Assembly: GCA_041477655.1 (NCBI GenBank)
Contig: JBGOUP010000001.1
Span: 1-39,167, forward strand
DNA: 39,167 nucleotides
Direction: 5' to 3'
Origin: Patescibacteria group bacterium
GTDB taxonomy: Bacteria > Patescibacteriota > UBA1384 > 2-12-FULL-50-11
The position numbers and the translations under genes were made by a program. Of this stretch, positions 163-37,825 are shown piece after piece. A model generated the notes under the pieces. That model made no database searches, was not told the origin of the DNA, and worked only from the letters and a program-made list of their open reading frames with translations. Numbering within the stretch: the stretch's first letter is position 1; every line of letters begins with the position of its first letter.

Positions 163-951
163 TCAATTGAGGCAAACCATTTGTCGATGACGTTGAACGG
201 TTACCTCGGAAAAAACCACTAAGCCATCAGTTAGGTGATTGAGTTGGTGAAGGATATCGCTCCACCGATACAAAAAGCTTAGGTTGACCGTTTCATCGTT
301 GATAATATGGTAACGATCATAAATACCGACCAGCCAACGGGCCAATTCCTCTTCAATAATATCCTGTAACCAACGGTCTAGTCCGAGTATTGACGGACCA
401 CCGATCTGTCGAATCACCGCATTAGCCGGGTTATCGATTAAATCCCTAAATCGGGAGTAGTCGCCGGCCTGACGCAGGTTAACAACGTAGAGACCACCGC
501 CAATCTTCTCTTCCCATCGTCTGGTTCGACTGCATAGGTCGACGGTGGTAATGGATTGTTTAGGGTAATGCCAGAGAATTAGATAAGCACGTTTGCTCTT
601 AACCCAGGCTATCTGACCGTCGCTAAATTGAAATGCCCATACTCGCTTATGACCATCGAATATCACCTCAATTACGGACAGCTCTTTGGCTTGGTTAATT
701 AGCCTCTTCCTTACCGTATATAGACTTTCTCCAGTCACCAGCGCCACCAACCCAAACAACGGTAATTCCCAACCCCAAGCAAAAGCAAAGAGGTCGGGCA
801 TTCTCAATAGATACTTGGTAGTCAATCCTATCACCACTAGTTGCAGACTTAAGGCTCCGATCAGTTGGATAGAGGAACCAAATCGGTACAGTCTGACACG
901 TTTGGTTAAACGCACCAAATTGTTGAACTCATGTAAAGTTGCGTCTTCCAA
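163..951 (-). CDS. Hypothetical membrane protein (262 aa)
   Basis: TTG start preceded by AAGGAGG with a 6-nt spacer. Two hydrophobic helices near the N-terminus (IQLIGALSLQLVVIGL, ELPLFGLVALVTG). No family recognised. Confidence 0.6.
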   Translation of the reverse strand: MEDATLHEFNNLVRLTKRVRLYRFGSSIQLIGALSLQLVVIGLTTKYLLRMPDLFAFAWGWELPLFGLVALVTGESLYTVRKRLINQAKELSVIEVIFDGHKRVWAFQFSDGQIAWVKSKRAYLILWHYPKQSITTVDLCSRTRRWEEKIGGGLYVVNLRQAGDYSRFRDLIDNPANAVIRQIGGPSILGLDRWLQDIIEEELARWLVGIYDRYHIINDETVNLSFLYRWSDILHQLNHLTDGLVVFSEVTVQRHRQMVCLN

Positions 952-1746: not shown

Positions 1747-3213
1747 ATGAGCCAAAGGATCATTTTACATCTGGACGTCAATTCTTATTTCGCAACAATG
1801 GAGCAACAGGCATATCCTAATTTAAGAGGTAAGCCGATAGGAGTGGCGGGAAAGGATGAGCGGATGTCTGGGAGACATTCGCGAACGGAAGCTCCGAAAA
1901 GCGGCATAATGTCTTTTGGCCGCTTTGCAGGAGCGAGTGGAGGCGAGCGAACAGTAGTGGCCGGAGCTTCAATTGAGGCCAAAAAGTTTGGTGTCAAATC
2001 GGGTATGTCCAGCTGGGAAGCCCGGAAACTCTGTCCGGGAATTATTATCGTCGCCGCCAATTACGATCGCTACATCTTCACTAGTAAACGAATTTTTTCT
2101 TTGATGGAACGCTTCAGCCCAACGGTGGAGGTTTTTTCCATCGACGAAGCCTTTCTAATAATAAACTCTAAGCTCGAAACTCTAAGCTCTAAACAAATCC
2201 AAATGCTTAAAAATCAAATTTACAAAAATGATTCGGATTTTGAAAATTGGAATTTGAAATTTGTTTCGAACTTAGGATTTAGTGCTTCGGATTTTGCCTA
2301 CCTTCAGGCTATTGATATTGCCGTACAATTAAAGCAACTGATCAGGACACATATCGGCTCTTGGGTGAGCGTTTCTATCGGTATTTCTTATGGCCGAACT
2401 CTAGCTAAGCTAGCTTCAGAGCTACAAAAACCCGACGGCCTAACGGTTATTAAACCTGAAGATTTCGCTCGGATCGCTAAAACAACGCCAATCGAAGAGC
2501 TCTGCGGTATTGGCTATCGCCTCCGACCACGCCTAAATCAGCTGGGCATTAGCACCATTGCCGAATTAGGTAGCGCTCCAAGAGAAATGCTAGTCAGGGT
2601 CTTTGGCGATTTCACGGGGTCGTGGCTAGCCGATATCGGACGGGGAATTGACGATAATCAGTTACGCTCATTTCGCCAATTACCTCAAGAGAAATCGGTC
2701 GGCCATTCATATACCTTGCCTCACGACTTAGCTTCGATGACCGAAGTTAAAAAAGTCATGTTGCTATTGGCCGAGAGGGTAGGGGTGCGACTTAGACGTA
2801 AAGGTCTTATGGGTAAAACGGTTTCGGTCTACGTTCGCTTTTACGACAAAACTGGTTGGGGCCAGCAAATGGCCATTAAAGATTATTTAATGGACGGATT
2901 GGCTATTTATAAAGTTGGAGCCGAACTACTAGACTTAATCATCCAGCCCAAACCCGTTCGCTTGATCGCCATTACGGTTAGCGATTTAGTCACCCAAGTT
3001 CAGACGACCAAGCCGCTTTTTGTAGTTAATCAACGCTACGAGCAATTGGTTGGAGCGATCGATAAAATCAATAATCGTTACGGTGAATTTACGGTTTTTC
3101 GGGGAGCTCTGGCCAAAATGAAACAGCGTATCTTCAAACTACCCGATGGTCGTAACAAACGACACTATCTGCCGGAAATTACTCACATTAATCCGTTTAC
3201 AAAGAGGGTGTAA
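1747..3213 (+). CDS. dinB: Y-family DNA polymerase IV (DinB) with two extra internal segments
   Basis: LHLDVNSYFATME, SIDEAFL and ISYGRTLAKLASELQKPDG motifs. 488 aa versus about 350-400 aa typical. ATG overlaps the upstream ORF stop (ATGA). Confidence 0.9.
   Translation: MSQRIILHLDVNSYFATMEQQAYPNLRGKPIGVAGKDERMSGRHSRTEAPKSGIMSFGRFAGASGGERTVVAGASIEAKKFGVKSGMSSWEARKLCPGIIIVAANYDRYIFTSKRIFSLMERFSPTVEVFSIDEAFLIINSKLETLSSKQIQMLKNQIYKNDSDFENWNLKFVSNLGFSASDFAYLQAIDIAVQLKQLIRTHIGSWVSVSIGISYGRTLAKLASELQKPDGLTVIKPEDFARIAKTTPIEELCGIGYRLRPRLNQLGISTIAELGSAPREMLVRVFGDFTGSWLADIGRGIDDNQLRSFRQLPQEKSVGHSYTLPHDLASMTEVKKVMLLLAERVGVRLRRKGLMGKTVSVYVRFYDKTGWGQQMAIKDYLMDGLAIYKVGAELLDLIIQPKPVRLIAITVSDLVTQVQTTKPLFVVNQRYEQLVGAIDKINNRYGEFTVFRGALAKMKQRIFKLPDGRNKRHYLPEITHINPFTKRV
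2158..2296 (+). repeat. Palindromic element R2 inserted in frame in dinB (about aa 139-186)
   Basis: Inverted repeat ctaagctcgaaac (2168..2180) / gtttcgaacttag (2263..2275), 12/13 complementary. AT-rich. Shares the words ctcgaaact, attggaatttg, gaacttag and ttcggatttt with R1. Confidence 0.6.
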
Positions 3214-3214
3214 A

Positions 3215-3494
3215 TCAAAACTCCGGTTGGGTCTCTGTGCGACGTACAGATTGAGACCCTAACCGGAGCGACTTGTGCCAAACAAACCGAGAAGTTTGGC
3301 AAATGGTGCCCTTTGGTTCCTTAATCCCCTGGGAAAGAAACTGGCCGTGTTTATTCTTAGCAACCTTACCGAGGAAGCCAACCTTACACCCGAGAATTGC
3401 CCAAACACCAACCAACTAATCCGAAACCGAAAGACGATGTGAAGTACTTAAGAATGCCTACTAACAGGCTGGGCTGATTTCAAATAGTTGTCAA
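3215..3494 (-). ncRNA. Candidate unclassified minus-strand transcript ending at the 3217..3268 terminator
   Basis: Orphan terminator with no credible CDS; the 66-aa ORF 3215..3415 runs through hairpins and looks non-protein-like. Extra hairpin tgccaaac/gtttggca (3276..3301). Possible weak promoter: TTGACA (3494..3489), 17 nt, CAGCCT. Confidence 0.3.
3217..3268 (-). terminator. Minus-strand intrinsic terminator abutting the dinB stop codon
   Basis: 15-bp stem, ctccggttgggtctc (3221..3235) / gagaccctaaccggag (3253..3268), with one bulge. A T-run (TTTT) follows only on the minus strand (3217..3220). Confidence 0.55.
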
Positions 3495-3765
3495 GCCCCT
3501 CCTAGCGGTGGAATTTGATAATGAGTGGTCATCCCCGAATGAATCTTCCCGGGCTCCCGCCCAGGGTATCTTCTTCTTCACTCCGCACTGCCGTGCTTGG
3601 CAAAGCGGCGAGGGCTCTCATCCACTGGCTTTGGCCCGTGGTATTCTCGCTAAGAATAAAGATGTTTTCAACGGTTATTCTCTTCTGTTTTAGCGTGCTA
3701 GGGGGTAGGAGGTTGAGGAAGGGGGAACGCTTCGCAGTAGATCCCCCTTCCTCGCATAATATCTC

Positions 3766-3788
3766 TTGACAAGTTCGGTATTTGTTCG
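3766..3788 (+). promoter_or_regulatory. Candidate LexA operator plus TTGACA upstream of lexA (TTGACAaGTTCGgtatttGTTCG)
   Basis: Near-identical copy of 1024..1046. An autoregulatory position for lexA is expected. Confidence 0.6.
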
Positions 3789-3819
3789 CTACGCTCAATA
3801 TATAATAAAGGAACTTAAA

Positions 3820-3965
3820 GTGGTGAATATATTTCTTGAGCGGTCGTCTCGCAGACTTGCCAGCTTGGTTTCCGAGCCTTGCGAGGAATGGCAAGTCGAG
3901 AGCGAGTAGTCGATCTATCTCTGGAATAGATCGACTACGTACCGATGAAGAAATATATTCACCAC
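3820..3965 (+). repeat. 146-nt element in the lexA leader closed by a perfect 18-bp inverted repeat
   Basis: gtggtgaatatatttctt (3820..3837) pairs with aagaaatatattcaccac (3948..3965). Two internal hairpins: gacttgcca/tggcaagtc (3854..3897) and gtagtcgatcta/tagatcgactac (3906..3938). The 3' arm ends 1 nt before the GAGGAGG Shine-Dalgarno (SD) sequence. Confidence 0.6.
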
Positions 3966-3976
3966 GAGGAGGAACA

Positions 3977-4573
3977 ATGCTCACACCTAAACAAAAACTA
4001 ATTTTAGATTTTATAGATTCATTTATTAATGATAACGGCTACGCGCCTAGTTATCGGGAGATTGCTGAAAACTTTGGCTTTTCGTCGGTGGCAACGGTGG
4101 CCGAACATATTGATAATTTAAAAAACAAAGGCTACTTAACTAATTCTGATTCTGGTTATCGTTCTATCCAGCCAATTGAAGTAGAGGCCGGTAATGCCCT
4201 AATGAATTTGGTGGTGCCACTGCTTGGCGCCATCCGAGCTGGCAAACCAATCGAAGCCATCAAGACCGATCTGTCACTGGAAGTGCCTCGCGACATGATG
4301 GGTAAAAACGTCTTTGCCCTGCGAGTCCGGGGCGACTCAATGAAAGACGACGGCATTTTAGACGGCGATTTTGTGGTGATTGAGCCCTGCACCAATCCAA
4401 AAAACGGTGATATTGTAGTGGCCTTGATTGACAAAGACAACGTGACCTTAAAGCGATTTTATCGGGAAAAAGATCATATTCGCTTGCAACCAGCTAACGC
4501 CAATTATCAGCCAATCCGGGTTAAGAAAGTTAGTATCCAGGGCCGGGTAAGGGGAGTAATCCGAAAGTTTTAA
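3977..4573 (+). CDS. lexA: LexA repressor (198 aa)
   Basis: Winged-helix N-terminus (YAPSYREIAENFGFSSVATVAEHIDNLKNKGYL), Ala-Gly cleavage region (AIRAGKP), GDSM serine and the LKRF lysine. ATG at 3977 preceded by GAGGAGG. The ORF-track start at 3836 is an upstream extension. Confidence 0.93.
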   Translation: MLTPKQKLILDFIDSFINDNGYAPSYREIAENFGFSSVATVAEHIDNLKNKGYLTNSDSGYRSIQPIEVEAGNALMNLVVPLLGAIRAGKPIEAIKTDLSLEVPRDMMGKNVFALRVRGDSMKDDGILDGDFVVIEPCTNPKNGDIVVALIDKDNVTLKRFYREKDHIRLQPANANYQPIRVKKVSIQGRVRGVIRKF

Positions 4574-5245: not shown

Positions 5246-5764
5246 ATGCCACGAGATTTAGACTTTGTTAGGCGCCCTCGCCGAGAATCACCGACGATTC
5301 ATAAACCAAGTCGACAACCGCGTTCAGGCTCGATGGCAATAGCCTTTGTCATAATAATTTTAGTGGTCGGCGGGATTTTAGTCGCTCAATACCTAAGCTC
5401 AAAACCAACCAGCGCCCCAGCATTAAACGCCGGCCAAACGCCAACCACATCTACGACACCACCAACAAATTCAACCACGCCAACTAACCAAACAAAATCT
5501 AGTCAGGCGGTCATTCAAATCTATGATTCCGGTGGAGGGGCTGACGAGCTCAAGAAAGTCAGCGACAGCTTAGCCAAGACCTATCAGATCAAGAACCTTG
5601 GCCCGTCGCAATTCGACTATGACAAAACGTATGTTTGGTATCGCAAAGAGTTTAAGACTGACGCCAACGCCATTGCCAAATTATTGAGCGATCGGGATGT
5701 CTCGCTCAAAGAATCAGAGATTTCCGGCGTATTTGATATCCTGGTTTACGTGGGTAAGAAGTGA
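5246..5764 (+). CDS. Membrane-anchored LytR_C-like domain protein (172 aa)
   Basis: N-terminal TM helix (IAFVIIILVVGGILVA), Thr/Pro-rich linker, and a C-terminal block (VIQIYDSGGGADELKKVSDSL...ANAIAKLL) resembling the LytR/CpsA/Psr C-terminal domain. Confidence 0.5.
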   Translation: MPRDLDFVRRPRRESPTIHKPSRQPRSGSMAIAFVIIILVVGGILVAQYLSSKPTSAPALNAGQTPTTSTTPPTNSTTPTNQTKSSQAVIQIYDSGGGADELKKVSDSLAKTYQIKNLGPSQFDYDKTYVWYRKEFKTDANAIAKLLSDRDVSLKESEISGVFDILVYVGKK

Positions 5765-5805: not shown

Positions 5806-6336
5806 ATGGTCACCACAGTTGATTATTTGCACCAGCGGGTCGGAGTCTTTATTGATGTCCAGAACCTCTATTACAGCGCCCGAACCATGTACGACAGCCA
5901 CGTTAATTTCGTTAAAATCGTTGAACAGGCCACGGCCAAACGTCAGCTGATTCGAGCCATTGCCTATGTTATTAAATCCGACGCGCCACGCGAACAGAGT
6001 TTCTTTGATGCCTTGGGCAAATCCGGACTTGAACTTAAATCTAAAGACATTCAAATTTTTCCTGGCGGCGCCAAGAAGGGGGACTGGGACGTCGGCCTAG
6101 CCGTTGACGCCATCAAGATAGCTGATCGTCTAGATGTTATCGTTATAGTTAGCGGTGACGGCGATTATCTGCCCTTAGTCACCTATTTAATTGAAAACAA
6201 GGGTTGCCGAGTTGAAGCTATGGCCTTTGGCCGAAGTACTTCAGCTAAATTGATCGAGGTGGTTGATCAGTTTTTTGATTTAGACAATCACACTCGCGAG
6301 TTCCTGATTAAAACTAATCACCATGCTGAAGGTTAA
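5806..6336 (+). CDS. NYN/LabA-like (PIN-fold) domain protein
   Basis: VGVFIDVQNLYY, GDWDVGLAVD and SGDGDYLPLV motifs. TAAAGT, 6 nt, then ATG leaderless-type start. Confidence 0.8.
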   Translation: MVTTVDYLHQRVGVFIDVQNLYYSARTMYDSHVNFVKIVEQATAKRQLIRAIAYVIKSDAPREQSFFDALGKSGLELKSKDIQIFPGGAKKGDWDVGLAVDAIKIADRLDVIVIVSGDGDYLPLVTYLIENKGCRVEAMAFGRSTSAKLIEVVDQFFDLDNHTREFLIKTNHHAEG

Positions 6337-7045
6337 AGACCTCCGTTTTGAGCAAAGTAGTAGTATCATCCTGGACAAAATATCCCTTGAAGTTAGCCGT
6401 GGCCAGATTTTCGGTCTGATCGGGCCGAACTCTTCTGGCAAAAGCCTACTCTTAGAGGTTCTCTCTGGGCGACAAGGATATTTTGAGGGCGATGTCCGCC
6501 TGGGAAGCTATAACCTCAAAACTGAGCCGACCAAAGCCAAGAGTCAGTTCGGTTATCTGCCAAATCCGGTTATTTTAGAAGACGGATTAACTGGTTACGA
6601 GCTTCTGGAGCTGGTCGGTTCATTGTATAGCCTCGGATCTGGTGTTCGTAGAGACAGAATATTGCAGCTGGCCAGCCAATTAGGCTGTCACGATGACTTG
6701 TATTCACTGCTTGAGCGTCAGGGTTTTGCTCTCAAGCAAAAAATTGGTTTAATCGCCGCCCTCATTCACCAACCGAGTCTATTGTTTCTTGACGAACCGA
6801 TTCTTCACCAAGATCCGACTGGCCAAGAACGGGTGATTGACCTACTTAAGGAAGAGAAAAAACGAGGCACTAGTATACTTTTGGCCAGTAACAACCTGCC
6901 TGTCGTAGAAGAGTTGGCCGATGTCATTGGCGTGGTCAATGAAGGCGGACTGTGGCGAGTTGGCAGTTTAGCTCAATTACGCAACCAAACTAAATCCAAG
7001 CATAAGGGGCTGGCGGCCATCTACGGCGAGCTTTTCAATGGCTGA
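6323..7045 (+). CDS. ABC transporter ATP-binding protein
   Basis: Walker A GPNSSGKS, Walker B LLFLDEP, degenerate signature motif. Overlaps the NYN gene by 14 nt. Confidence 0.8.
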   Translation: MLKVKDLRFEQSSSIILDKISLEVSRGQIFGLIGPNSSGKSLLLEVLSGRQGYFEGDVRLGSYNLKTEPTKAKSQFGYLPNPVILEDGLTGYELLELVGSLYSLGSGVRRDRILQLASQLGCHDDLYSLLERQGFALKQKIGLIAALIHQPSLLFLDEPILHQDPTGQERVIDLLKEEKKRGTSILLASNNLPVVEELADVIGVVNEGGLWRVGSLAQLRNQTKSKHKGLAAIYGELFNG

Positions 7046-8441
7046 ATGGTCGGTTTTTTTCCGACTCCGAACTTCGTTGTTTATTAGCAAGTTCGGTCGG
7101 GATGGTTGGCTAGGTTTGATTTCGACCACTCTGACCTTGCTACCCTGGCTGGTGCTAGCATTGGTGCTATTTGGTTTGGCCCAAAGCCTGCCACCCTCTG
7201 TTCGACCACTAGTCGACCAGGTGTTAGCTACCAGCGCCATTGTCGCTCCTTTGTTTTGGGGATTACTGTCGGGACTGACAGGAGAAGGTAGCCAGTCGGT
7301 ATCATCGTTAGGCATTATCCGGCAAGGAGCGTGGGCAAAGCTAACCGTGACCCTAGCCCTTCCCTTGATCATGTCTGTGGTCATTCTATTTCCTTTCCTG
7401 CTTGGCAGTTGGGTTGATCTTGGGCTAACGCCGTTAACAAAATCAGTTGGTTTAGTGGCAATTTTGTCGCTTGAAATTGGCCTGACTACGATTGGCTTTG
7501 CCTTGGCGTGGCTGATTAAGTTTATCGGCCGCCAGCTACTGGTTCGGCTGTTTTTGGTGGCGATAGCCCTTTGGGCAATTTGGTACAGCACAACCACTGC
7601 CCTGCCTAGCCTACTGACCCTTTCATTAACTTTAGGCGTAACCAATCAACTGACGGAACTGTTAATTATTGGTCTTGGTTGCATCGGTATGTCCGTTACC
7701 GTTATTGAGGCCATTGAAAACTCTGTCTTCAGCGCCCGACACCAACGAAAGTTAATAAAATACTGGTCGGTCTTGACGTCAGCCAGAGCCTTAACGTCAA
7801 GTTTTAACTGGTTTGACAGTCTCTTTGTTGTTAGCCTGCTTAATTTGGTTCGAAATAACGCCATTCATCGTCAACTAATTTTGCCTTTTATTTTTTTGAT
7901 ATTCGGTCTGCCACTCTTAAACGCTTTGTCACCCTTAGACTCAACAACAACCCTTATCGCTTCAAGCCTATTATTCATCCTACTTGGCAGTATAGTTTCC
8001 AGAGGATCCGGCAAAATCTGGTTAGAAACAATGGAGAAATTCCGACACACACCGGCTTTAAGGCCCTCCAGCTGGTGGGCGGTCTATTTAGCCTCGTTGT
8101 CAGTGATCTTGGTAATCGGGATTTTGTTTATTGGTTATATTGCCAGTTTCAGCCTGGCCTTAGACCTGAACGCTAAAGTACTGCTTTTGGTTCTACTAAT
8201 GGCTACTCACAGCCTTTACTTTTATTTTGGATCGGTTGAAGTTGCCAGAAATGTTTCGGCTAGCAGTCGAAAACTTATGGCGATATTGGCAGTGGCTCTG
8301 GTGTTTTCAGTCGTGACTGTCATGGCAGTATTAAGCGGCGCGGTTTCGTTGTTTTCGGTGCTAATCGTTAGTCTCATCTGGCTAATCGCATATGGCCTGA
8401 TACTGAAATGGCTAATGCCAATTAATTCCCAATTAATCTAA
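7038..8441 (+). CDS. Polytopic membrane protein, putative permease partner of the ABC ATPase
   Basis: 467 aa, about 10+ hydrophobic segments. 8-nt overlap with the ATPase gene. No family recognised. Confidence 0.6.
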   Translation: MAEWSVFFRLRTSLFISKFGRDGWLGLISTTLTLLPWLVLALVLFGLAQSLPPSVRPLVDQVLATSAIVAPLFWGLLSGLTGEGSQSVSSLGIIRQGAWAKLTVTLALPLIMSVVILFPFLLGSWVDLGLTPLTKSVGLVAILSLEIGLTTIGFALAWLIKFIGRQLLVRLFLVAIALWAIWYSTTTALPSLLTLSLTLGVTNQLTELLIIGLGCIGMSVTVIEAIENSVFSARHQRKLIKYWSVLTSARALTSSFNWFDSLFVVSLLNLVRNNAIHRQLILPFIFLIFGLPLLNALSPLDSTTTLIASSLLFILLGSIVSRGSGKIWLETMEKFRHTPALRPSSWWAVYLASLSVILVIGILFIGYIASFSLALDLNAKVLLLVLLMATHSLYFYFGSVEVARNVSASSRKLMAILAVALVFSVVTVMAVLSGAVSLFSVLIVSLIWLIAYGLILKWLMPINSQLI

Positions 8442-9937: not shown

Positions 9938-10390
9938 CTAACGTCGGGATTCGGCCAGACTAACAGTCTGGCCAATTTCACCGACGGCCTTAACAAAACC
10001 GTAGATTTCCGACTCAATTTCTTCGCTGGTTGCCCAACGAAAATTCGGTAGGTTGTTCTCCCTTACCCAATTGGCTGGGAAAGGATAATGCGAAAGGATG
10101 TCGATAGGGCAAAACTCGTTGTCGGGGTTCCTCATCAACTCGACGAAATAGCTAGCGACGGCGACTATTTGTCGTTGTTCTTCCTCTGGTAGCTTGTCAC
10201 TATCCGTGGCCAGGATAGTGATCGTCCTGGGAAAGCTGTTGAAGTAAAGAGTGTCAATGAGCTGGTCTAGGCGACAGCTAGCGATTACGTGCTTGTCGGA
10301 GATTTTCGGCAAGACTAGCTCATAATCTTGGAACTTCAACACCTGACGAAGCGGATAGAGAAGTAATAAGTTTGAATTACTCGGATCCAC
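9938..10390 (-). CDS. Hypothetical protein (150 aa)
   Basis: GTG start preceded by AGGAGG with a 6-nt spacer. Its stop lies 1 nt from the cca stop (convergent). No family recognised. Confidence 0.5.
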   Translation of the reverse strand: MDPSNSNLLLLYPLRQVLKFQDYELVLPKISDKHVIASCRLDQLIDTLYFNSFPRTITILATDSDKLPEEEQRQIVAVASYFVELMRNPDNEFCPIDILSHYPFPANWVRENNLPNFRWATSEEIESEIYGFVKAVGEIGQTVSLAESRR

Positions 10391-29389: not shown

Positions 29390-32300
29390 TCAATCCTGAA
29401 TTTCTTCGATCGGCTGGATTTGATTTGGCTGATGATTAAGTGGCTCAATTTGGTCGTTATTTTGGGTCGGAACCGCTAGCTCTTCGGCCTTATCCCATGT
29501 AATTAAGTCTGAATTTTCATCGATTCTCTCCCCCACTCCCCCACTCTGATTTGTCTGTGTGTCTGTATTTTGGAGCGGCTGTTCATTTATTTTTTGATCA
29601 CTCTCCCCTGCTTTCTCGAGAATATTAGCCTCAGAATTATTTGATTTCATTTCATTTCTCGGCCAGTCCCCTGCTTCTGGAGTATTAATGTCAAGCAAAG
29701 TTGGTAAACTTTCGTTAGTTTCGAATTCACTTGTCTCCCCCATCTCATTAATCGGCGGTTTAGGATTTTCTTTTTCGGCCTCTCCCACACTAACAGGTTC
29801 GGCAACTGGTTGTTTTGGCCCAGTAACAGCGTACCAGTTGCGCGAAAACCGATCTTTGAGAATCTCCACTTTAGTTCCTTCGGGCACAGTTTTAATTGGC
29901 GCTGATGATTCTGGCTCTTGAACAGTTTGGCTAGGCTGACTAGCTTCGGTCATCTTGGGTTGTGTCTCTGGAGTTGACTGGCTGACTGATGGTCTAACTT
30001 CATCTTCAATCTTCTTCTGGGCCTCAACGAAACCTTTGTCTTTGGGTATCTCTGAAACCGCTACTGGTGTCGAGTGATTGGATAGATCAATCGGCGCCGA
30101 CCACTCGGCGATATAATCCTCAACATCCGATCGAGGCCGAGTGAACTGTCGACGGCTAGCTTCGATTATGTGGTCAATAAAGCCGACCGCTTCACCCCGC
30201 GGCGGCAGAGTTTTAGCCGAGAAGGCCGGCACTGTCACACCATCAATAGCCATCTTCAAATAGATATGATAATTGTCTAAATTAACCAAATCGTTGACGT
30301 CAAAGACCGGCTCAAACTCACGTTGGAGCACCTCGGCATCGCCGGCGCCAACTCTAAATGAAACAATTGTGCCGACGTTGCCAAAGACGGCGTTAGAAAC
30401 GGTTTCGGGCATTTGGGCTATGTACTGATGAGTCATAATTAAATTGAGCCGGTATTTTCGGGCTTCGGACAGGATTGAAGCGAACGAATCGGTGGCAAAG
30501 GTTTGGAACTCATCAACATATAAGTAGAAGTCTTGGCGGTCGATTTCGCTAATGTTGGTCCGGCTCATGGCCGCCAGTTGAATCTTGGTAATCAACATCG
30601 AGCCCAATAACAGTGAGTTGTCTTCGCCAATTTTACCAACCGAAAAATCAGCCAGGAGAATTTTGCCGGAATTCATAATGTCGCCGATGTCAGTGGTGGA
30701 GCGAGGTTGGCCAACAATGTTGCGGATCGTCGAGGAAGACAGAAACTGGCCGACTTTATTCTGAATCGGGGCGATGGCTTCGGTCCGGAATTTGGGATCA
30801 TACTTCTCATACTCGTTGACAAAGAAATCGCGAATAACCGGATCTTTAACTTCATTAACGACCAGGTGGCGATAAGCGGCATCAGTTAGAATACGCATAA
30901 CTCCAAGCAAGGTTGAATTAGGATATTCAAGCAGGGCCAGAACGGCGTTTCGCAAAATATACTCTAACCTCGGCCCCCAAGATTCGCCAAAGATTTTTTT
31001 GAAAATGCCAATTACGCCGGAGGCAACCACATTTTTTAGCTCGGGGTTGACGTTCTCCAGCAAATTAAAGCCGACTGGATTATCGGCATCAGCTGGATTA
31101 AAATAAACGACATCGTTAATTCTTGATTCAGGAATGAAGTTAAGAATATGGTGGATCAGCTCGCCGTGCGGATCAACCACGGCCAGTCCCCGACCTTCAT
31201 TAATGTCGTCAATGATCATATTCTCCAGTAGCGTTGACTTACCTGTTCCGGTTTTACCGATGATGTAAGTATGGAGCCGCCTGTCGTTACGCTTGATGCC
31301 AAATTTCTTGGATTCATTGCGATAGCTGGTGCTGGCAAAAAGGGTCAGCTCTTCGGAGGGCACCACCCCATCGAGCGGCAGGTTGGCTGGCGGCTCGCCT
31401 TTTTTGGAACCAGCCCAAGCGATGGTCGGCGTGGAGACTGTTTCCGAGGGGTAATGGTAGATCGAAGCCAACTCGGTGATGTTGAAAATCATCTCTGGCT
31501 GGCCAAAAGTTCGGGAGCGAAAAAGTTTAAGCACTTCTTGGTCGGTCGTCACCTCTTTCATAATAAAACTGTTGATATTGATGGAATTAAATTGCTTAAA
31601 AGCGCCGACAATTTGTTCAAGTTTGGCTCGAGTGAAATTTGGATCCGGCCCGGCCGCCAGAATTCTTATAGTGGTCTGATAACCAAGTTTAGTAATTTTT
31701 TCTTCAATCCCCTTGATCGCCTGCTGGGCTGTTCCAGGCACATCTTTTTTATCGTCTGGCTTGTCTGACTTGTCTGGCTCGGCCGATGGATTAATGATAG
31801 TTCTAACTGCGTGAGTAGCTAAGCTGGCGGCTTCACCTATCACCAGTTCCATCCAACCTTTGTGTTTGGGCGGCTCTTTAACATCCTTAATCACCTTCTC
31901 GCCCTTATCTTGCCAGTCGTCATCGACCGGACGAACAATTGTTTGGATCCAAATTTCTTCGTCCTGATTAAGAGCACTCAAGACACCGGTGATTGCCGAA
32001 AGCGGATCAACTTCAAAATTTTGAAAAGTTTTAATTGGAAAGACCGGGTCACGCTTGAGGGTTAGTTCTGTTGCGGCCAAGTGTTTGCCCTGGGAAAGTT
32101 GAGTGTAGTCGTGCTCCAATTCTACAACTGCTGTTTCAACGTTTGGATACTGGGCATAGATTTGACCGATTACGAAATCTTTAAGATCAAGCGGTGTATA
32201 AACATAAAAAGTAATGGTATTGTTTCGGGAAACAATCTCAAAACTGATTTGGGGCTGGATATTAGAACCGGCTCGAAAAATTCCGTGCAGGGCGGCGAAC

Positions 32301-32479
32301 ATCTGCTCGGCCGCCAAGGGTGTTTTATCGTTGTTCTTAGGTACTGATATGGAAATTAGACAATTACTCTCTTCTACCTGCCAATCAATTGTTTGCTTGA
32401 CTCGATTGGTGCGTAACCACATAAATATGGCCGCTACGACCAGTGTTCCGACAAAAAGGAAATTAATAAGAATTAGCAT
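29390..32479 (-). CDS. Membrane-anchored VirD4/TraG/TraD-like (type IV coupling protein-like) P-loop ATPase, paralog B, with a roughly 295-aa low-complexity C-terminal tail
   Basis: N-terminal TM helix. Walker A GKTGTGKST, Walker B FYLYVDEFQTF, ARKYRLNLIMTHQY. About 380-aa N-terminal domain homologous to that of 32496..34907. Confidence 0.75.
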   Translation of the reverse strand: MLILINFLFVGTLVVAAIFMWLRTNRVKQTIDWQVEESNCLISISVPKNNDKTPLAAEQMFAALHGIFRAGSNIQPQISFEIVSRNNTITFYVYTPLDLKDFVIGQIYAQYPNVETAVVELEHDYTQLSQGKHLAATELTLKRDPVFPIKTFQNFEVDPLSAITGVLSALNQDEEIWIQTIVRPVDDDWQDKGEKVIKDVKEPPKHKGWMELVIGEAASLATHAVRTIINPSAEPDKSDKPDDKKDVPGTAQQAIKGIEEKITKLGYQTTIRILAAGPDPNFTRAKLEQIVGAFKQFNSININSFIMKEVTTDQEVLKLFRSRTFGQPEMIFNITELASIYHYPSETVSTPTIAWAGSKKGEPPANLPLDGVVPSEELTLFASTSYRNESKKFGIKRNDRRLHTYIIGKTGTGKSTLLENMIIDDINEGRGLAVVDPHGELIHHILNFIPESRINDVVYFNPADADNPVGFNLLENVNPELKNVVASGVIGIFKKIFGESWGPRLEYILRNAVLALLEYPNSTLLGVMRILTDAAYRHLVVNEVKDPVIRDFFVNEYEKYDPKFRTEAIAPIQNKVGQFLSSSTIRNIVGQPRSTTDIGDIMNSGKILLADFSVGKIGEDNSLLLGSMLITKIQLAAMSRTNISEIDRQDFYLYVDEFQTFATDSFASILSEARKYRLNLIMTHQYIAQMPETVSNAVFGNVGTIVSFRVGAGDAEVLQREFEPVFDVNDLVNLDNYHIYLKMAIDGVTVPAFSAKTLPPRGEAVGFIDHIIEASRRQFTRPRSDVEDYIAEWSAPIDLSNHSTPVAVSEIPKDKGFVEAQKKIEDEVRPSVSQSTPETQPKMTEASQPSQTVQEPESSAPIKTVPEGTKVEILKDRFSRNWYAVTGPKQPVAEPVSVGEAEKENPKPPINEMGETSEFETNESLPTLLDINTPEAGDWPRNEMKSNNSEANILEKAGESDQKINEQPLQNTDTQTNQSGGVGERIDENSDLITWDKAEELAVPTQNNDQIEPLNHQPNQIQPIEEIQD

Positions 32480-32495
32480 ATTTAATTAAACATAT

Positions 32496-34907
32496 TTAAT
32501 TTCGAATCGCTGGGCTTGACGTTGCCATCGTTGGAGCAAAACTAACAGGTTTCATTGAAAATCGTTGACGACTGGCCTGCTTGAGCCAATTAGCCATCTC
32601 GTCACTGCCAACGTTGGGACTTTTCAAACCAGTTAAGCTAAACGGTTTAGTCGGAGCTAAATCAATCAGCAGTTTAACATACGCCTGAAAACGATCAAGA
32701 TTAGTCAGATCCTCGACCGACAATCCTGGCAGTTCTTTGGCTAAATATTCAGCATCCTCGGCCCCAACCCGATAAGCGATCAGTGTCCCGATGTTACCGA
32801 TGACGGCGTCGCGAATTGGCTGGGTTAGTTGGGCAAAATACTGATTAGTGATGTTTAGGTTGAGTCGGTATTTGCGAGCTTCAGCCAAAATTGTGGCGAA
32901 GGTATCGGTAGTAAAGTTTTGGAACTCATCAACGTAAAGGTAGAAATCCTGACGAGCTTCTTCAGTAATATCAGCCCGACTAAAAGCCGCCACTTGGATT
33001 TTCGAAACCAAAATCAGACCCAAAAGGTTGGAGTTTGTTTCACCTATTTTGCCTTTAGCTAAATTGACCAAAAGGATTTTGCCTTCGTCCATTAATTGCC
33101 TCAAATGGAACGAACTTTTTTTCTGACCGATAATATTGCGCATCAGATCATTAGTCATAAAACGGCCAAATTTAGAGATGAAGTAGTTGTACATCTCCGA
33201 TTTGTGAAAATCACTAGTTTTGGCCAACTGCTCTTGCCAAAAAGCCTTGACAATTGGGTCACGGACATTGGCCACGGCCAGAGTTCTAAAATTATCATCG
33301 GTAAAAAGCCGAGGCAGATCAATCAGCGAGCCGCCATCGGGCTGGCTCATAACTGTCAGGGCGGCGTTTCTGGCCCAGTGCTCCCATTGCGGACCGACAA
33401 TGCCGGTTCGGTTGGGATCGAACAGCTTGTAGAATATTTCTATTACTTCTTGGATCAAAAAGTCTTTCTCTTCCGGCCGACTGTACTCCAGCAAATTCAA
33501 GCCCATCGGATAGATGGTGTCAGATGGATCAAAAAGAACGACGTCGTTAGCACGGTTTGTTGGAACTTTTTTAAGCAGGCTCTCGATGGCGTCGCCAAGC
33601 GGATCAATAAAACATAAACCCTTACCGTTATGCATATCTTGCTCGATCATATTTTCAAATAGTGTTGTCTTACCAACACCAGTTTTACCAATCATAAATA
33701 GATGACGGCGACGATCTTCCTCTTGCAAGCGAACCAATTGTTTGACGCCCCGAAAATCTGATTGACCAAGCACAATCCCCTCTTTGGGCAGATTAGCCGG
33801 TGCTGGCAGTGATTTTGCCAATTGCCATTTAATTCCGGGGGTTTCCAAATTGCGGTTAGGAAAATGAAGAACGCTGGACAACTCTTCCGTGTTCAAAATC
33901 ATTTTGGGAGCGTTACCAAATAATCGCAATAAATAATCTCGGGCCAGAGACAAGCCGACTGCGTTTCGATACTTAAACGAGTTGAATTGCGGAGCATAAA
34001 ACTGGGAGAAAGACGAGACAATCGCCGTCAAATTCACTTGTGCTTCTTCCTCGGTTTTAGCCGTGGCGACAAGCCGAATTATCGTCTCAAAACCAACTTT
34101 ACTGCCTTTTTCTTGAAGTGCCTTAAGTGTTTCTTCTTGGGCCGGGCTCATCGGCTTGGCTTGATCGGTCTTGGCTGGGGTCCGAACTGCTTCGGCAATT
34201 GTGCCAAGCACCCGACCAGTCTTAGATCGATTGACTAAATGGAGTTTATTATCCATAACATGCTGACTGGCAATTTGAGTGTGCATCCGCCAAGTCTCCC
34301 GAATTGGCCGGATCAATAATTGAATCGAGGCTGTTCCCTGCTTGAGTTTGGTCAGAGCGGTCGTTATGCCATTAAGCGGATCCGCTTCAAGGTAGCGAAA
34401 AGTTTTAATCGGCAAGACATAAGATTTTGCCTGTTCTAAAACCACTCCGGCAATACCCGGCTCGTCGTTACGGAAGATTTTGGGCGCGCCAACAAACGAG
34501 ACTTGGGCGTTGGCAAAAAAACTATGGACTTGTCGCTCAACTATTGAAGAAATTCTCTTGGGCGCCAAAATATAGAAGCCAATCGTGCCATCAATGGCGG
34601 TTATCTCCAGACTGATATGGGCCGGCGTGCTAAACAACCAGTCAATGAAGTTTCGCTGATGAATTGTTGTCGTTAGAGCCGAGTAAAACTGCTCCATCGG
34701 GGCGATCAGATCCTTAAAATTCTTGAGTGGATCGTTGGGGTTTCTCTGCTCGTTACCTTCCTTAGATAGCGTAACGCTCATACAAACAAGGGTGGTCACA
34801 TCGTTAAGCCAATCTCGCTTCTGCCAAACCCTGACTAACACCATCAAGACAATTGGCACGCCGACGATAAGGCCAATAATCAAGTAGATAAGTGATGTAG
34901 AGATCAT
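32496..34907 (-). CDS. Membrane-anchored VirD4/TraG/TraD-like P-loop ATPase, paralog A
   Basis: N-terminal TM helix. Walker A GKTGVGKTT, Walker B FYLYVDEFQNF, ARKYRLNLNITNQY. Shares the N-terminal domain with paralog B (for example PIKTF..(L/F)E.DPL..IT, ELSSVLHFP/ELASIYHYP). Confidence 0.75.
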   Translation of the reverse strand: MISTSLIYLIIGLIVGVPIVLMVLVRVWQKRDWLNDVTTLVCMSVTLSKEGNEQRNPNDPLKNFKDLIAPMEQFYSALTTTIHQRNFIDWLFSTPAHISLEITAIDGTIGFYILAPKRISSIVERQVHSFFANAQVSFVGAPKIFRNDEPGIAGVVLEQAKSYVLPIKTFRYLEADPLNGITTALTKLKQGTASIQLLIRPIRETWRMHTQIASQHVMDNKLHLVNRSKTGRVLGTIAEAVRTPAKTDQAKPMSPAQEETLKALQEKGSKVGFETIIRLVATAKTEEEAQVNLTAIVSSFSQFYAPQFNSFKYRNAVGLSLARDYLLRLFGNAPKMILNTEELSSVLHFPNRNLETPGIKWQLAKSLPAPANLPKEGIVLGQSDFRGVKQLVRLQEEDRRRHLFMIGKTGVGKTTLFENMIEQDMHNGKGLCFIDPLGDAIESLLKKVPTNRANDVVLFDPSDTIYPMGLNLLEYSRPEEKDFLIQEVIEIFYKLFDPNRTGIVGPQWEHWARNAALTVMSQPDGGSLIDLPRLFTDDNFRTLAVANVRDPIVKAFWQEQLAKTSDFHKSEMYNYFISKFGRFMTNDLMRNIIGQKKSSFHLRQLMDEGKILLVNLAKGKIGETNSNLLGLILVSKIQVAAFSRADITEEARQDFYLYVDEFQNFTTDTFATILAEARKYRLNLNITNQYFAQLTQPIRDAVIGNIGTLIAYRVGAEDAEYLAKELPGLSVEDLTNLDRFQAYVKLLIDLAPTKPFSLTGLKSPNVGSDEMANWLKQASRQRFSMKPVSFAPTMATSSPAIRN

Positions 34908-35203
34908 GATTCACCCGGCGGCTCTTTTGGTAAAATGCCAATTCGATCCTGTAGAAGTATTAGCTCCGGCAAATTCTTGATCGGATCAGTAACTTTAATT
35001 TCAGCGATTGGCTGGGTGACTGGTGCCGTTTGCTCGGGTTGTGCCAAATCCGGAATATTGGGCGTTAATGTTGACTGTTTCGGTCCTGGTCGAGATTCTG
35101 CTGGTGCTGGTTCAAAAACATCCTGGCTCGCCTGGCCATTAGCTTCAACTCCCCGAACTTCCGGCTCACCGGCCGGTTCAATAATCGATCCCCTCTCTAC
35201 CAT
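34904..35203 (-). CDS. Pro/Glu/Gln-rich 99-aa ORF, translationally coupled (ATGA) to paralog A
   Basis: ATG sits 6 nt after TGgTATGAT (35218..35210, minus strand), a leaderless geometry. Its low-complexity composition makes coding status uncertain. Confidence 0.4.
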   Translation of the reverse strand: MVERGSIIEPAGEPEVRGVEANGQASQDVFEPAPAESRPGPKQSTLTPNIPDLAQPEQTAPVTQPIAEIKVTDPIKNLPELILLQDRIGILPKEPPGES

Positions 35204-35244
35204 ATTGCCATCATACCATCTCCCAAGATGGTTCCAAACAAAGG

Positions 35245-36463: not shown

Positions 36464-36991
36464 TTAAACATCAGCGGCTGGTTGTAAGCGAGTTGCCTCA
36501 ACGAGCTTATCACCAGCAAAAACCAGCCGATAGACATCGGCCCAGTCACAGGGAACATTTTGCCACGATTTTTTGCCTTCAAGCACGGCCACGATATGGC
36601 CGATGACAAATTGGTGGCTAACACAAATTATATGCTGACCAGCATGCTGGATTGCTAATTGATCGATAATTGTCTCGCTTCTTTCACCGACCTCACTCTC
36701 CGAGTCAGATGGGTAAATCTCCCTTAAGCCAGGTTTTTTAATGATTGATAATTTCAACTGACCACCGGAATTGATGTATTGAGCTGTCTCCAGGCATCGC
36801 TCGACGGGGCTAGAGTAGATGGCTGATGGCCCAAAATCCCCTAAATACCGGCCAACCGCTTCGGCTTGCTTAACACCAACCGGGGTTAGCGTTCGCGGCC
36901 CATCAATAACAGGGTTACGAGGATTGCTAACGGTGGTCGGTTGCCCGTGACGAACCAAAAACACTATGGTTTGAAATTTCTTCTCTATCAT
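36464..36991 (-). CDS. Histidine phosphatase (phosphoglycerate mutase-like) family protein
   Basis: FLVRHGQ RHG motif and a downstream VSH. ATG at 36991 overlaps the upstream stop (ATGA). Confidence 0.75.
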   Translation of the reverse strand: MIEKKFQTIVFLVRHGQPTTVSNPRNPVIDGPRTLTPVGVKQAEAVGRYLGDFGPSAIYSSPVERCLETAQYINSGGQLKLSIIKKPGLREIYPSDSESEVGERSETIIDQLAIQHAGQHIICVSHQFVIGHIVAVLEGKKSWQNVPCDWADVYRLVFAGDKLVEATRLQPAADV

Positions 36992-37701
36992 CAGGTATTG
37001 AAGTATTCTCGCCAAATATTGTAGAGTTCTTTGGTTGCCCACAAATCATTGGCGTTGTAGCGGGCAATTTCTTCAAATTTCTTGTCCCGAAAATAAGGCG
37101 TCACGTCTTCACCGCTCATACCATCAACTTTGGGGCTGGTAATGCCAAAAAGTCGGCACCACAAATGAAGACCGCCTTTACGACGAAGTGCTCCATAAAA
37201 GGTCAGTTGGTCTTGCAAGTCCACATGTTTGTGACCAGGCCGTTGGCTAAATAAATAACGGTTACTCATTAAATCTTTAGTCGGTTTGGTTTTGTGTAGA
37301 GCCGAGCGAACCATTAGAAAAGGCACATCAAAGGCTCGACCGTTAAAACTAATAAATTCGTCGTAGTTACTAGCGCCAGCCCAAAAACTTTCTAACATCT
37401 CCTTCTCGCCCATCGGCCGGTATTTAATCTTGTTCTCTTCAAATTCTTTGGTTTCGGCTCCGGGCGACTGGAAATAAACGACGCCTTGATCTTTTTCCAC
37501 ATCCAGAACGCCGATGGCCACGATTTCGCTAGTTAGTGGCGAAAAACCCATCTCACCTTTCAAGTTTTCTAGGGCGGACTCATATTCAGTTTCGGATGAC
37601 GATTCCTTTTTGATCCATTTGGTCATCATTTCTTTGGTTAAATCGTCCATTTGGTCGTAATCTTCGCCAACAGTTTCGATATCAAAAACTAACTTTGCCA
37701 T
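36991..37701 (-). CDS. DEDD-type 3'-5' exonuclease (PolB-exonuclease-like / RNase H fold)
   Basis: FDIET (Exo I), FNGRAFDVPFL (Exo II), YNANDLWAT (Exo III). ATG at 37701 lies 7 nt after TATACT (37714..37709), a leaderless geometry. Confidence 0.7.
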   Translation of the reverse strand: MAKLVFDIETVGEDYDQMDDLTKEMMTKWIKKESSSETEYESALENLKGEMGFSPLTSEIVAIGVLDVEKDQGVVYFQSPGAETKEFEENKIKYRPMGEKEMLESFWAGASNYDEFISFNGRAFDVPFLMVRSALHKTKPTKDLMSNRYLFSQRPGHKHVDLQDQLTFYGALRRKGGLHLWCRLFGITSPKVDGMSGEDVTPYFRDKKFEEIARYNANDLWATKELYNIWREYFNT

Positions 37702-37825
37702 TGGCAATAGTATAGCGAAACCTTGGATTTGTTCGAGGTATTAAATTTCTAACCATAGAGATATACTTCTGGTAGACGGTTTGCACACCACAAACTGGAA
37801 TACAGACAAAGGAGGCTAAATAGGC

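Follow-up and report, generated by a model that had tools for sequence, protein, structure and literature searches.

Most Patescibacteria encode a chromosomal type IV secretion system (T4SS) nested within the mating-pair formation group MPF-FATA, with a VirB4 ATPase carrying PF19044 in 2,417 of 3,035 genomes (~80%), a PrgI-type VirB3 (PrgI, PF12666), arrays of VirB2-like pilins, and TrsD, a separate protein resembling the N-terminal part of VirB4 (Quiñonero-Coronel et al. 2025, PMC12102498). The T4SS is essential for the epibiotic growth of Saccharibacteria. The essential cluster of Ca. Southlakia epibionticum was reported without a recognizable coupling protein (Wang et al. 2023, PMC10633639), and a homolog of the type IV coupling proteins (T4CPs) was later judged non-essential (PMC12102498), which gives relevance to the genes described here. 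They are two adjacent genes for membrane-anchored, coupling-protein-like ATPases, named paralogs A and B, in a stretch of 39,167 nucleotides (nt) from a Patescibacteria group bacterium (GenBank assembly GCA_041477655.1, contig JBGOUP010000001.1, positions 1 to 39,167), hereafter the window.

A and B are best read as dispersed, duplicated cognate coupling ATPases of the chromosomal patescibacterial MPF-FATA-like T4SS, a reading to which a probability of about 0.5 was assigned. They do not reveal a new kind of system, and are probably an overlooked motor or substrate receptor of an essential secretion machine. The preliminary description of this DNA, made from the sequence alone, had proposed an undescribed system; this part was not borne out, since the family is already catalogued and has the affinity of T4SS coupling ATPases. 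Databases and supplements already contain the gene family along with its affinity to T4CPs and its transposon sequencing (Tn-seq) phenotypes, whereas the VirB4-like character of the DUF8128 domain, the A and B clades, the small partners, the actinobacterial T4CP link and the essentiality of one paralog appear not to be described in the literature searched.

Architecture of the paired ATPases

A and B are tandem paralogs of the same architecture, as first described, with 36% identity across ~800 amino acids (aa) (BLASTP, E 1e-147). The PIKTF block is present at A166-170 and B148-152, and (A/V)DPL, I(L/F)N..EL(S/A)S and EARKY are further common blocks. The stop codon of A and the ATG of B are separated by 16 nt, and the coordinates of all features are collected in Table 1. 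The single N-terminal transmembrane (TM) helix proposed for each protein was supported by hydropathy and, for A, by a helix in the AlphaFold2 (AF2) model. The N-terminal ~25 residues hold the sole Kyte-Doolittle windows of 19 residues above 1.6 in A and B, and no other hydrophobic segment of either protein was a candidate for a second TM helix by hydropathy.

Table 1. Coordinates of paralogs A and B, their domains and the upstream elements in the window.
Feature	Coordinates	Strand	Description
Paralog A	32496..34907	minus	803 aa; A-type DUF8128 coupling-protein-like ATPase; A clade of the neighbor-joining tree
A TM helix, single, N-terminal	34827..34898	minus	aa 4-27; predicted by hydropathy and AF2 (helix at residues 4-38)
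A DUF8128 domain	33753..34796	minus	aa ~38-385; predicted VirB4-N-terminal-domain-like fold
A T4CP-like RecA motor with all-alpha insertion	32538..33725	minus	aa ~395-790
A motor motifs	Walker A 33666-33689; Walker B 32925-32942; EARKY 32868-32882	minus	
Paralog B	29390..32479	minus	1029 aa; B-type DUF8128 coupling-protein-like ATPase
B TM helix	32414-32476	minus	aa 2-22
B DUF8128 domain	31367-32392	minus	aa ~30-371
B motor	30125-31294	minus	aa ~396-785; Walker A 31235-31258; Walker B 30509-30526
B acidic low-complexity C-terminal tail	29393..30124	minus	244 aa; 14% Glu, 10% Pro; net charge -28
Small partner open reading frame (ORF)	34904..35203	minus	99 aa; 16% Pro, 12% Glu; net charge -8; without TM helix
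Promoter-like element	35210..35237	minus	TTGGAA-16 nt-TG-n-TATGAT; ends 6-7 nt before the small-ORF ATG

The VirD4/TraG/TraD-type P-loop module was also confirmed, and judged by profile scores the motor signal is of the T4CP type and not of the VirB4 type. Pfam TrwB_AAD_bind was matched above its cut-off of 20.5 in A (25.3 bits) and in B (31.2 bits), with weaker matches to T4SS-DNA_transf and TraG-D_C below their cut-offs. The best NCBIfam matches were TraD/VirD4-like models, all far below cut-off (best score 57 bits vs. 366), and the VirB4 model TIGR00929 scored just 11-14 bits against a cut-off of 643. A profile search of PDB sequences returned only TrwB (5.6e-6) and DotL (8e-5), in the Walker A region. 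By Foldseek, the matches following TrwK were HerA (4d2i, E 1.5e-13), Cagβ/VirD4 and TrwB. The motor aligned with TrwB at E ~1e-12, with a target-normalized TM score (TMt) of 0.59-0.66 and a root-mean-square deviation (rmsd) of 5-6 Å over ~440 columns, and with Cagβ at a TMt of 0.53-0.55. The helical insertion lies at aa ~480-608 of the A model.

Walker A reads GKTGVGKT in A and GKTGTGKS in B, and Walker B is YLYVDE. All 68 A-type and all 32 B-type proteins compared retain the Walker A Lys, the Walker B Asp-Glu, the Arg-Lys and the Gln, and 60 alignment columns, with all catalytic residues included, were invariant across both clades. Both proteins are predicted to be catalytically intact. Neither paralog is decaying, and the decay of one of them in relatives, which the preliminary description had considered, was not found, the catalytic residues being invariant.

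The domain between helix and motor is homologous in the two paralogs, as proposed, although it is not unassignable to any family: orthologs 72-74% identical to A, and the syntenic B orthologs, are annotated with PF26449 (DUF8128) followed by weak T4CP families. The DUF8128 assignment of A and B is made through these precomputed Pfam annotations of orthologs. The AF2 model of this domain from A (pLDDT 92.3, pTM 0.89) was compared with the PDB by Foldseek, and 14 of the 14 matches at E ≤0.001 were TrwK, the VirB4 of R388 (E 6e-8 to 2e-4, probability 1.0, query-normalized TM score (TMq) ~0.42, ~10% identity). The next folds were unrelated (E >1e-3, TM <0.2). As modeled, the domain has the fold of the VirB4 N-terminal domain (NTD); that NTD corresponds to NTD is suggested by colinearity and by a better target-normalized score on the 457-residue TrwK chain. 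Full-length A (model pLDDT 89.8) also had full-length TrwK as its top matches (E 1e-15, ~900 aligned columns), where the poor global rmsd points to a match of each domain but a different arrangement of the two relative to one another.

Relatives, essentiality and gene neighborhoods

Relatives of the motor were searched by tblastn in plasmids, where 604 records were matched. The 812-aa protein WP_331738717.1 from a plasmid of Embleya sp. NBC_00896 was 32% identical to A aa 336-787 (E 8e-66), and its N-terminal part aligned with the DUF8128 profile in hhalign with a probability of 99.5% (E 2e-22, 371 columns, with ~50 columns in the Walker A region adding to the score). The hallmark motifs QxHxxFE, DxDPL and xQIxxRP are aligned in this protein, and it has one N-terminal hydrophobic helix. 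Its gene belongs to a cluster of TrbL_4 (VirB6-like), PrgI, XF1762, a VirB4-like ATPase (P-loop_TraG/AAA_10/TraC_F_IV), the 812-aa protein, Replic_Relax and NlpC/P60, and the entire cluster was found again in the p1 replicon of Streptomyces sp. BHT-5-2. By this order, the protein with TM helix, DUF8128 and motor stands where a conjugation-type T4SS of monoderms has its T4CP. Outside the phylum, the full architecture was seen only in this slot, in clusters that share their component families, PrgI (PF12666) and a PF19044 VirB4, with the patescibacterial T4SS. The pair had been called orphan and stand-alone. The former holds for the 39-kb window only and not beyond it, and the latter fails, since in the Streptomycetaceae conjugation clusters a gene of the same architecture has that of a VirB4-type ATPase on one side and a relaxase-like gene on the other.

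Other members of the motor clade were observed in different surroundings (loci fetched for the survey are cited by their L numbers). A 708-aa same-clade motor protein is encoded among CHAT and TPR genes in Bradyrhizobium p131_1 (L091:8044-10170), and in a Sulfitobacter plasmid (L087:8920-10107) recombinase and transposase genes flank the gene for a motor-only protein of 395 aa. A Halorussus limi plasmid (NZ_CP096663.1, L089:4268-11682) carries tandem 'TraM recognition domain' ATPases of 1092 and 1007 aa with a 376-aa ORF between them, downstream of a pilin gene, as an archaeal parallel to paired T4SS-type ATPases. These Sulfitobacter, Bradyrhizobium and haloarchaeal motors have other N-termini, and their surroundings show that the motor clade is not confined to T4SS contexts.

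The published Tn-seq data for S. epibionticum (PMC10633639, Table S1) contain two candidate orthologs. SEML1_0142 (1019 aa), annotated as a 'TraM recognition domain-containing protein' and belonging to a core Patescibacteria-enriched family, was called essential throughout (ES/ES/ES), with Tn insertions going from 114 in the input to 11, 11 and 9. The upstream gene SEML1_0141 (139 aa) was called growth-defective and then essential (GD/ES/ES), with insertions going from 9 in the input to 0. Both run parallel to the T4SS genes SEML1_0006-0019, which are essential. SEML1_0293 (921 aa), annotated as a 'T4SS DNA-binding domain-containing protein', was non-essential (NE) at 3/3 time points. In Table S2 of the same work, SEML1_0142 and SEML1_0293 are annotated only for their P-loop domains (aa ~361/381-800), and the N-terminal ~370 residues are left blank.

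No match named Southlakia or Nanosynbacter was obtained in the homology search, and gene order was compared with fetched relatives. In L086, an A-type DUF8128 protein (588 bits to A of the window vs. 425 to B) follows a 139-aa ORF and precedes a reverse 185-aa gene, a reverse DUF11 gene, gyrB and gyrA, which is the order of SEML1_0141-0146. In L080, the order topA, sigma70_r4/HARE-HTH gene and B-type gene matches SEML1_0296/0294/0293. By gene order, length and annotation, SEML1_0142 would be the A-type and SEML1_0293 the B-type protein. This mapping points to an A-type ortholog that, together with its small partner, is essential in S. epibionticum, and to a dispensable B-type. The statement in PMC12102498 that the ML1 t4cp homolog is non-essential appears to concern only SEML1_0293.

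The family is widespread in the candidate phyla radiation (CPR). The closest homologs, at up to 74% identity, came from Patescibacteria/CPR metagenomes, several labeled Berkelbacteria, and the window itself derives from a Berkelbacteria-like patescibacterium. Searching 1.84 billion representatives with the N-domain profile gave 4,775 clusters at 50% identity, 2,991 of them at E ≤1e-10, and DUF8128 was always N-terminal in the retrieved proteins. A scan of GTDB species genomes gave at least 556 related loci, from more than 12 candidate phyla or classes with the labels Berkel-, Sacchari-, Gracili-, Peri-, Parcu-, Magasanik-, Uhr-, Falkow-, Doudna-, Kerfeld- and Dojkabacteria and Kazan. A neighbor-joining tree of 100 full-length proteins was cleanly split into an A clade of 68 and a B clade of 32. 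A-type and B-type are two ancient clades, present in all sampled CPR classes and derived from an ancient duplication. The A-type proteins have a median length of 834 aa, and the B-type proteins range from 711 to 1180 aa (median 963) with a tail of variable length.

In the window, the pair is flanked by secD/secF on one side and tgt on the other. Pfam scans of the other ORFs of at least 100 aa in the 39 kb gave zero matches to T4SS, conjugation or pilus families, in agreement with the preliminary description of housekeeping flanks. The GC content is even throughout, no integrase is present, and scans for tRNA and Rfam families detected nothing in the window. The context survey covered 83 loci, each fetched with flanks of up to 10 kb. 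The order tgt-small ORF-A-B-secF-secD was found in 19 of these first fetched loci, as well as in L084, L085 and the window, down to ~55% protein identity and with A-B spacings from overlapping to 3.2 kb. The pair is split up in other classes, with A and B at different genomic sites. Their recurrent neighbors are housekeeping genes (dnaX, serS, cysS, corA, ruvC, yebC, rluA, topA, gyrBA). A and B are vertically inherited core genes and not a mobile-element relic, and the earlier view of a core chromosomal feature was upheld by the synteny.

Upstream of A, the stop codon of the 99-aa ORF overlaps the A start in ATGA, and the tgt stop is 41 nt upstream of the small ORF. At the equivalent position in L084, L085, L001 and L003, an ORF of 95-141 aa was found with just 18-30% identity. 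Across the classes, A-type genes have as a rule a small same-strand ORF immediately upstream, alignable within subclades only, and clusters 4 and 17, which hold small ORFs from other classes, did not detect the 99-aa ORF of the window. The 99-aa ORF is a real, positionally conserved partner of A, and its conservation is positional and compositional only. The leaderless promoter claimed for it fared less well as a consensus match, since promoter-like matches in the region were not enriched over shuffles (10 observed vs. 11.0 expected). Despite this, a putative leaderless start at the small ORF is plausible, since relatives have an extended -10 (TGGTATAnT) at a fixed distance from the ATG: it recurs at equal distance in L085 and L001 and is degenerate in L084.

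Further proteins were observed next to A-type and B-type genes. Immediately downstream of A, a ~179-aa protein is encoded in 29 of 72 A-type loci (e.g., L003:12520-13047 and L018:3681-4220), with an N-terminal coiled coil, a beta-rich C-terminal region and an invariant NYxSKSKL..GD motif. It had no match in Pfam, NCBIfam or PDB (DotY at E 0.5 is not significant) and no homolog in the window. In one CPR lineage, a ~675-aa ORF without Pfam match is coupled by a 4-nt overlap to the A-type 3' end, before gyrB (L070:12439-14469, L063:12370-14391). Immediately upstream of B-type genes is encoded a ~345-aa protein that combines Sigma70 region 4 with a HARE-HTH domain (e.g., L010:13287-14318, L080:4271-5335); its counterpart in S. 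epibionticum, SEML1_0294, annotated as RpoS, is essential (PMC10633639).

Proposed function and alternatives

In the proposed mechanism, each of A and B would form a membrane-anchored ring, hexameric by analogy, which would use ATP to recruit a substrate, protein or DNA, and feed it into an MPF-FATA-type T4SS-like apparatus. The VirB4-like N-domain may be the module that docks onto a platform of VirB3/PrgI, VirB4 and VirB6. The A-type motor may act with the small acidic Pro-rich protein that is encoded upstream and translationally coupled, and the B-type, with its long acidic tail, could be an accessory or alternative receptor. Ring formation, physical coupling to the T4SS, docking by the N-domain and the nature of the substrate are inferences. 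The coupling reading draws on a T4CP motor, on an N-domain that resembles in fold the part of VirB4 docking onto VirB3/VirB8, on actinobacterial relatives in the T4CP slot and on an A-type gene and small partner that are essential in S. epibionticum, like the T4SS.

Several observations weigh against this coupling role. No T4SS, VirB or relaxase genes were found among the recurrent neighbors of A and B in the 83 loci. The link of the N-domain to VirB4 is one of fold similarity only, and scans of A, B and 28 N-domains gave no VirB4 Pfam family at a threshold as loose as E ≤10. T4SS genes are absent around same-clade motors that share 33-37% identity with the motor of A. The B-type is dispensable in S. 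epibionticum, and the mapping of both paralogs onto that genome is indirect. In the patescibacterial T4SS the relaxase is absent, and 5,713 T4CP homologs were counted in 2,918 of 3,035 genomes, with 148 near virB4 (PMC12102498). This T4CP count cannot be equated with DUF8128 proteins, since Table S3 of that work mixes the profiles t4cp1 and t4cp2; it contains adjacent t4cp2-profile matches with ~62-64% coverage, far from virB4, which resemble tandem A/B pairs. That T4CP genomes outnumber VirB4 genomes could reflect incomplete metagenome-assembled genomes or genuine independence. Since Patescibacteria carry the T4SS elsewhere in the genome (PMC12102498), the 39-kb window cannot show independence from it.

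The strongest alternative is a T4SS-independent translocase, exapted from an ancestral T4CP, in which A and B, possibly as a hetero-oligomer with 6-12 TM helices, act with their small partners to move DNA, nucleotide polymers or proteins across a single membrane, for example in the acquisition of host macromolecules. The missing T4SS linkage in the loci examined, the excess of T4CP over VirB4 genomes and the related motors in non-T4SS contexts all fit this idea, as do the conserved partners of A itself, both the small upstream ORF and the 179-aa downstream protein. Exaptation was suggested as possible by the authors of PMC12102498, the ML1 t4cp homolog being non-essential, and S. epibionticum needs a source of nucleotides other than ComEC-dependent competence (PMC11665869). 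Against it, a channel is not obvious, since each subunit contributes a single TM helix and the conserved neighborhood encodes no polytopic partner. The closest full-architecture relatives outside the CPR occupy canonical T4CP positions, and the A-type essentiality parallels that of the T4SS cluster. An autonomous translocase was considered doubtful, though a serious candidate. In a bolder form of the same idea, the DUF8128 ATPases would be a surviving intermediate between VirB4 and VirD4, a coupling protein that has kept the N-terminal domain of VirB4, and the patescibacterial A and B with their acidic partners would have become a T4SS-independent, possibly hetero-oligomeric translocase essential for the epibiotic lifestyle, for example by importing nucleic acids or other macromolecules of the host into these auxotrophs. 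This form is speculative and improbable.

About equally improbable is that A and/or B work as VirB4-like assembly ATPases, which would energize the machine or the assembly of a VirB2-like pilus and not recruit substrates. The best full-length structural matches are to VirB4/TrwK, the N-domain matches VirB4 only, and patescibacterial systems often have the N-terminal part of VirB4 as the separate TrsD and, in their T4SS clusters, VirB2-like pilin arrays. However, ~80% of the genomes already encode a bona fide PF19044 VirB4 together with TrsD, and in the Streptomycetaceae clusters the DUF8128 protein occurs alongside a distinct VirB4-like ATPase and adjoins the relaxase-like gene. The T4CP-type motor signal, and the TIGR00929 scores given above, also speak against it.

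Very improbable is a substitute for FtsK/SpoIIIE that pumps chromosomal DNA during division. A and B are membrane-anchored motors of the FtsK-HerA superfamily, ECOD places the P-loop domain of SEML1_0142 on the FtsK template 2iut, and DNA-related neighbors (dnaX, ruvC, gyrBA, topA) are frequent. The Pfam FtsK_SpoIIIE match in B is confined to the P-loop (E 0.03, 14 bits vs. a cut-off of 24), and no gamma domain, which reads KOPS, is present. The idea was rejected since S. epibionticum has a canonical essential FtsK, SEML1_0096, with 4TM, alpha, motor and gamma domains (PMC10633639).

Finally, a remnant of an integrative conjugative element (ICE) or plasmid, with T4CP genes decaying after loss of the remaining element, would account for a family that is related to conjugative T4CPs and lacks partner T4SS genes in the window, but it is effectively refuted by the tgt/secDF synteny held to ~55% protein identity, the uniform GC without integrase or tRNA, the 60 invariant columns, the phylum-wide spread and the one essential paralog in S. 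epibionticum. Of the two features by which an ICE or plasmid origin had at first been expected to show itself, an N-domain that maps to conjugative families was found, and a location in ICEs or plasmids was not found for the Patescibacteria genes.

The analysis adds to the described family two ancient T4CP-like paralogs across the phylum, a VirB4-like N-domain not annotated before, actinobacterial relatives in the T4CP position and, by synteny, one paralog that is essential together with its small partner. It also raises a possible evolutionary link between the VirB4 and VirD4 ATPases. A-type, B-type, the small ORF and the 179-aa neighbor can serve as handles for finding the cargo of the patescibacterial T4SS.

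Other genes of the window and comparison with known systems

The remaining window encodes a Y-family polymerase, LexA, NYN, an ABC ATPase, a CCA-adding enzyme, DUF3048, SLT, HIT, YqeY, YbeY, FtsA, FtsZ, a class II ribonucleotide reductase, a PduO-type adenosyltransferase, DUF6580, an AddA-like helicase-nuclease, RluA, a sugar nucleotidyltransferase, SecD, SecF, TGT, His_Phos and a PolB-exonuclease-like protein. At 1747-4573, the ImpB/UmuC-type Y-family polymerase adjoins the LexA repressor, an SOS-type module in a reduced CPR genome. The ABC ATPase (6323-7045) is followed, within 6323-8441 (+), by a 467-aa ORF without Pfam match (7038-8441), presumably a divergent permease partner. At 16711-20558 (+), the B12-dependent reductase with a TSCPD domain is followed by the cobalamin adenosyltransferase. 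Upstream of tgt, at 36464-37707 (-), a 238-aa stand-alone PolB-exonuclease-like/RNase_H_2 3'-5' exonuclease overlaps the start of the His_Phos phosphatase gene, and the order His_Phos-tgt is kept in L001, L084 and L085. Three ORFs of 150-262 aa, at 163-951 (-), 5246-5764 (+) and 9938-10390 (-), have no Pfam family.

Compared with known systems, A and B belong, like FtsK/SpoIIIE and HerA, to the additional-strand catalytic-E (ASCE) P-loop superfamily, in which FtsK and HerA form ring translocases; the 4TM, alpha and gamma domains of FtsK and the HAS barrel of HerA are absent from A and B. VirB4 (TrwK of R388; PDB 7o43, 7o42, 8rtd) has, like A, an N-terminal alpha/beta domain followed by a C-terminal ATPase of the FtsK/HerA superfamily. 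Sequence models show no similarity between VirB4 and A or B, whose motor signal is T4CP-type, and a genuine, separate VirB4 coexists with the DUF8128 proteins both in the Streptomycetaceae clusters and in Patescibacteria. In addition, VirB4 relies on VirB3 as its membrane partner and adjoins homologs of VirB3, VirB6 and VirB8, none of which is near A and B in the window or among recurrent neighbors, whereas A and B have their own TM helix.

The T4CPs VirD4, TrwB and TraD share with A and B the RecA-like motor with Walker A, Walker B, RK and Q motifs, the all-alpha insertion between Walker A and Walker B, and the N-terminal membrane anchoring. They differ in usually having two TM helices with a periplasmic loop, where A and B have one, and in having no ~350-aa DUF8128 domain, like the VirB4 NTD, between anchor and motor. 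They are also encoded with relaxase and/or Mpf genes, whereas the patescibacterial A and B are unlinked to them and form two ancient paralogs. Within the Patescibacteria, the A-type protein of S. epibionticum ML1 is longer than A of the window (1019 aa, with a C-terminal tail), and A and B are not adjacent there. The T4CP of the Streptomycetaceae differs from A and B in being a single copy inside a conjugation-type cluster, with ~16% identity in the N-domain and no evident small Pro-rich ORF upstream; its layout is that of A, with a single TM helix followed by a DUF8128-like domain and the T4CP motor, 812 aa in all.

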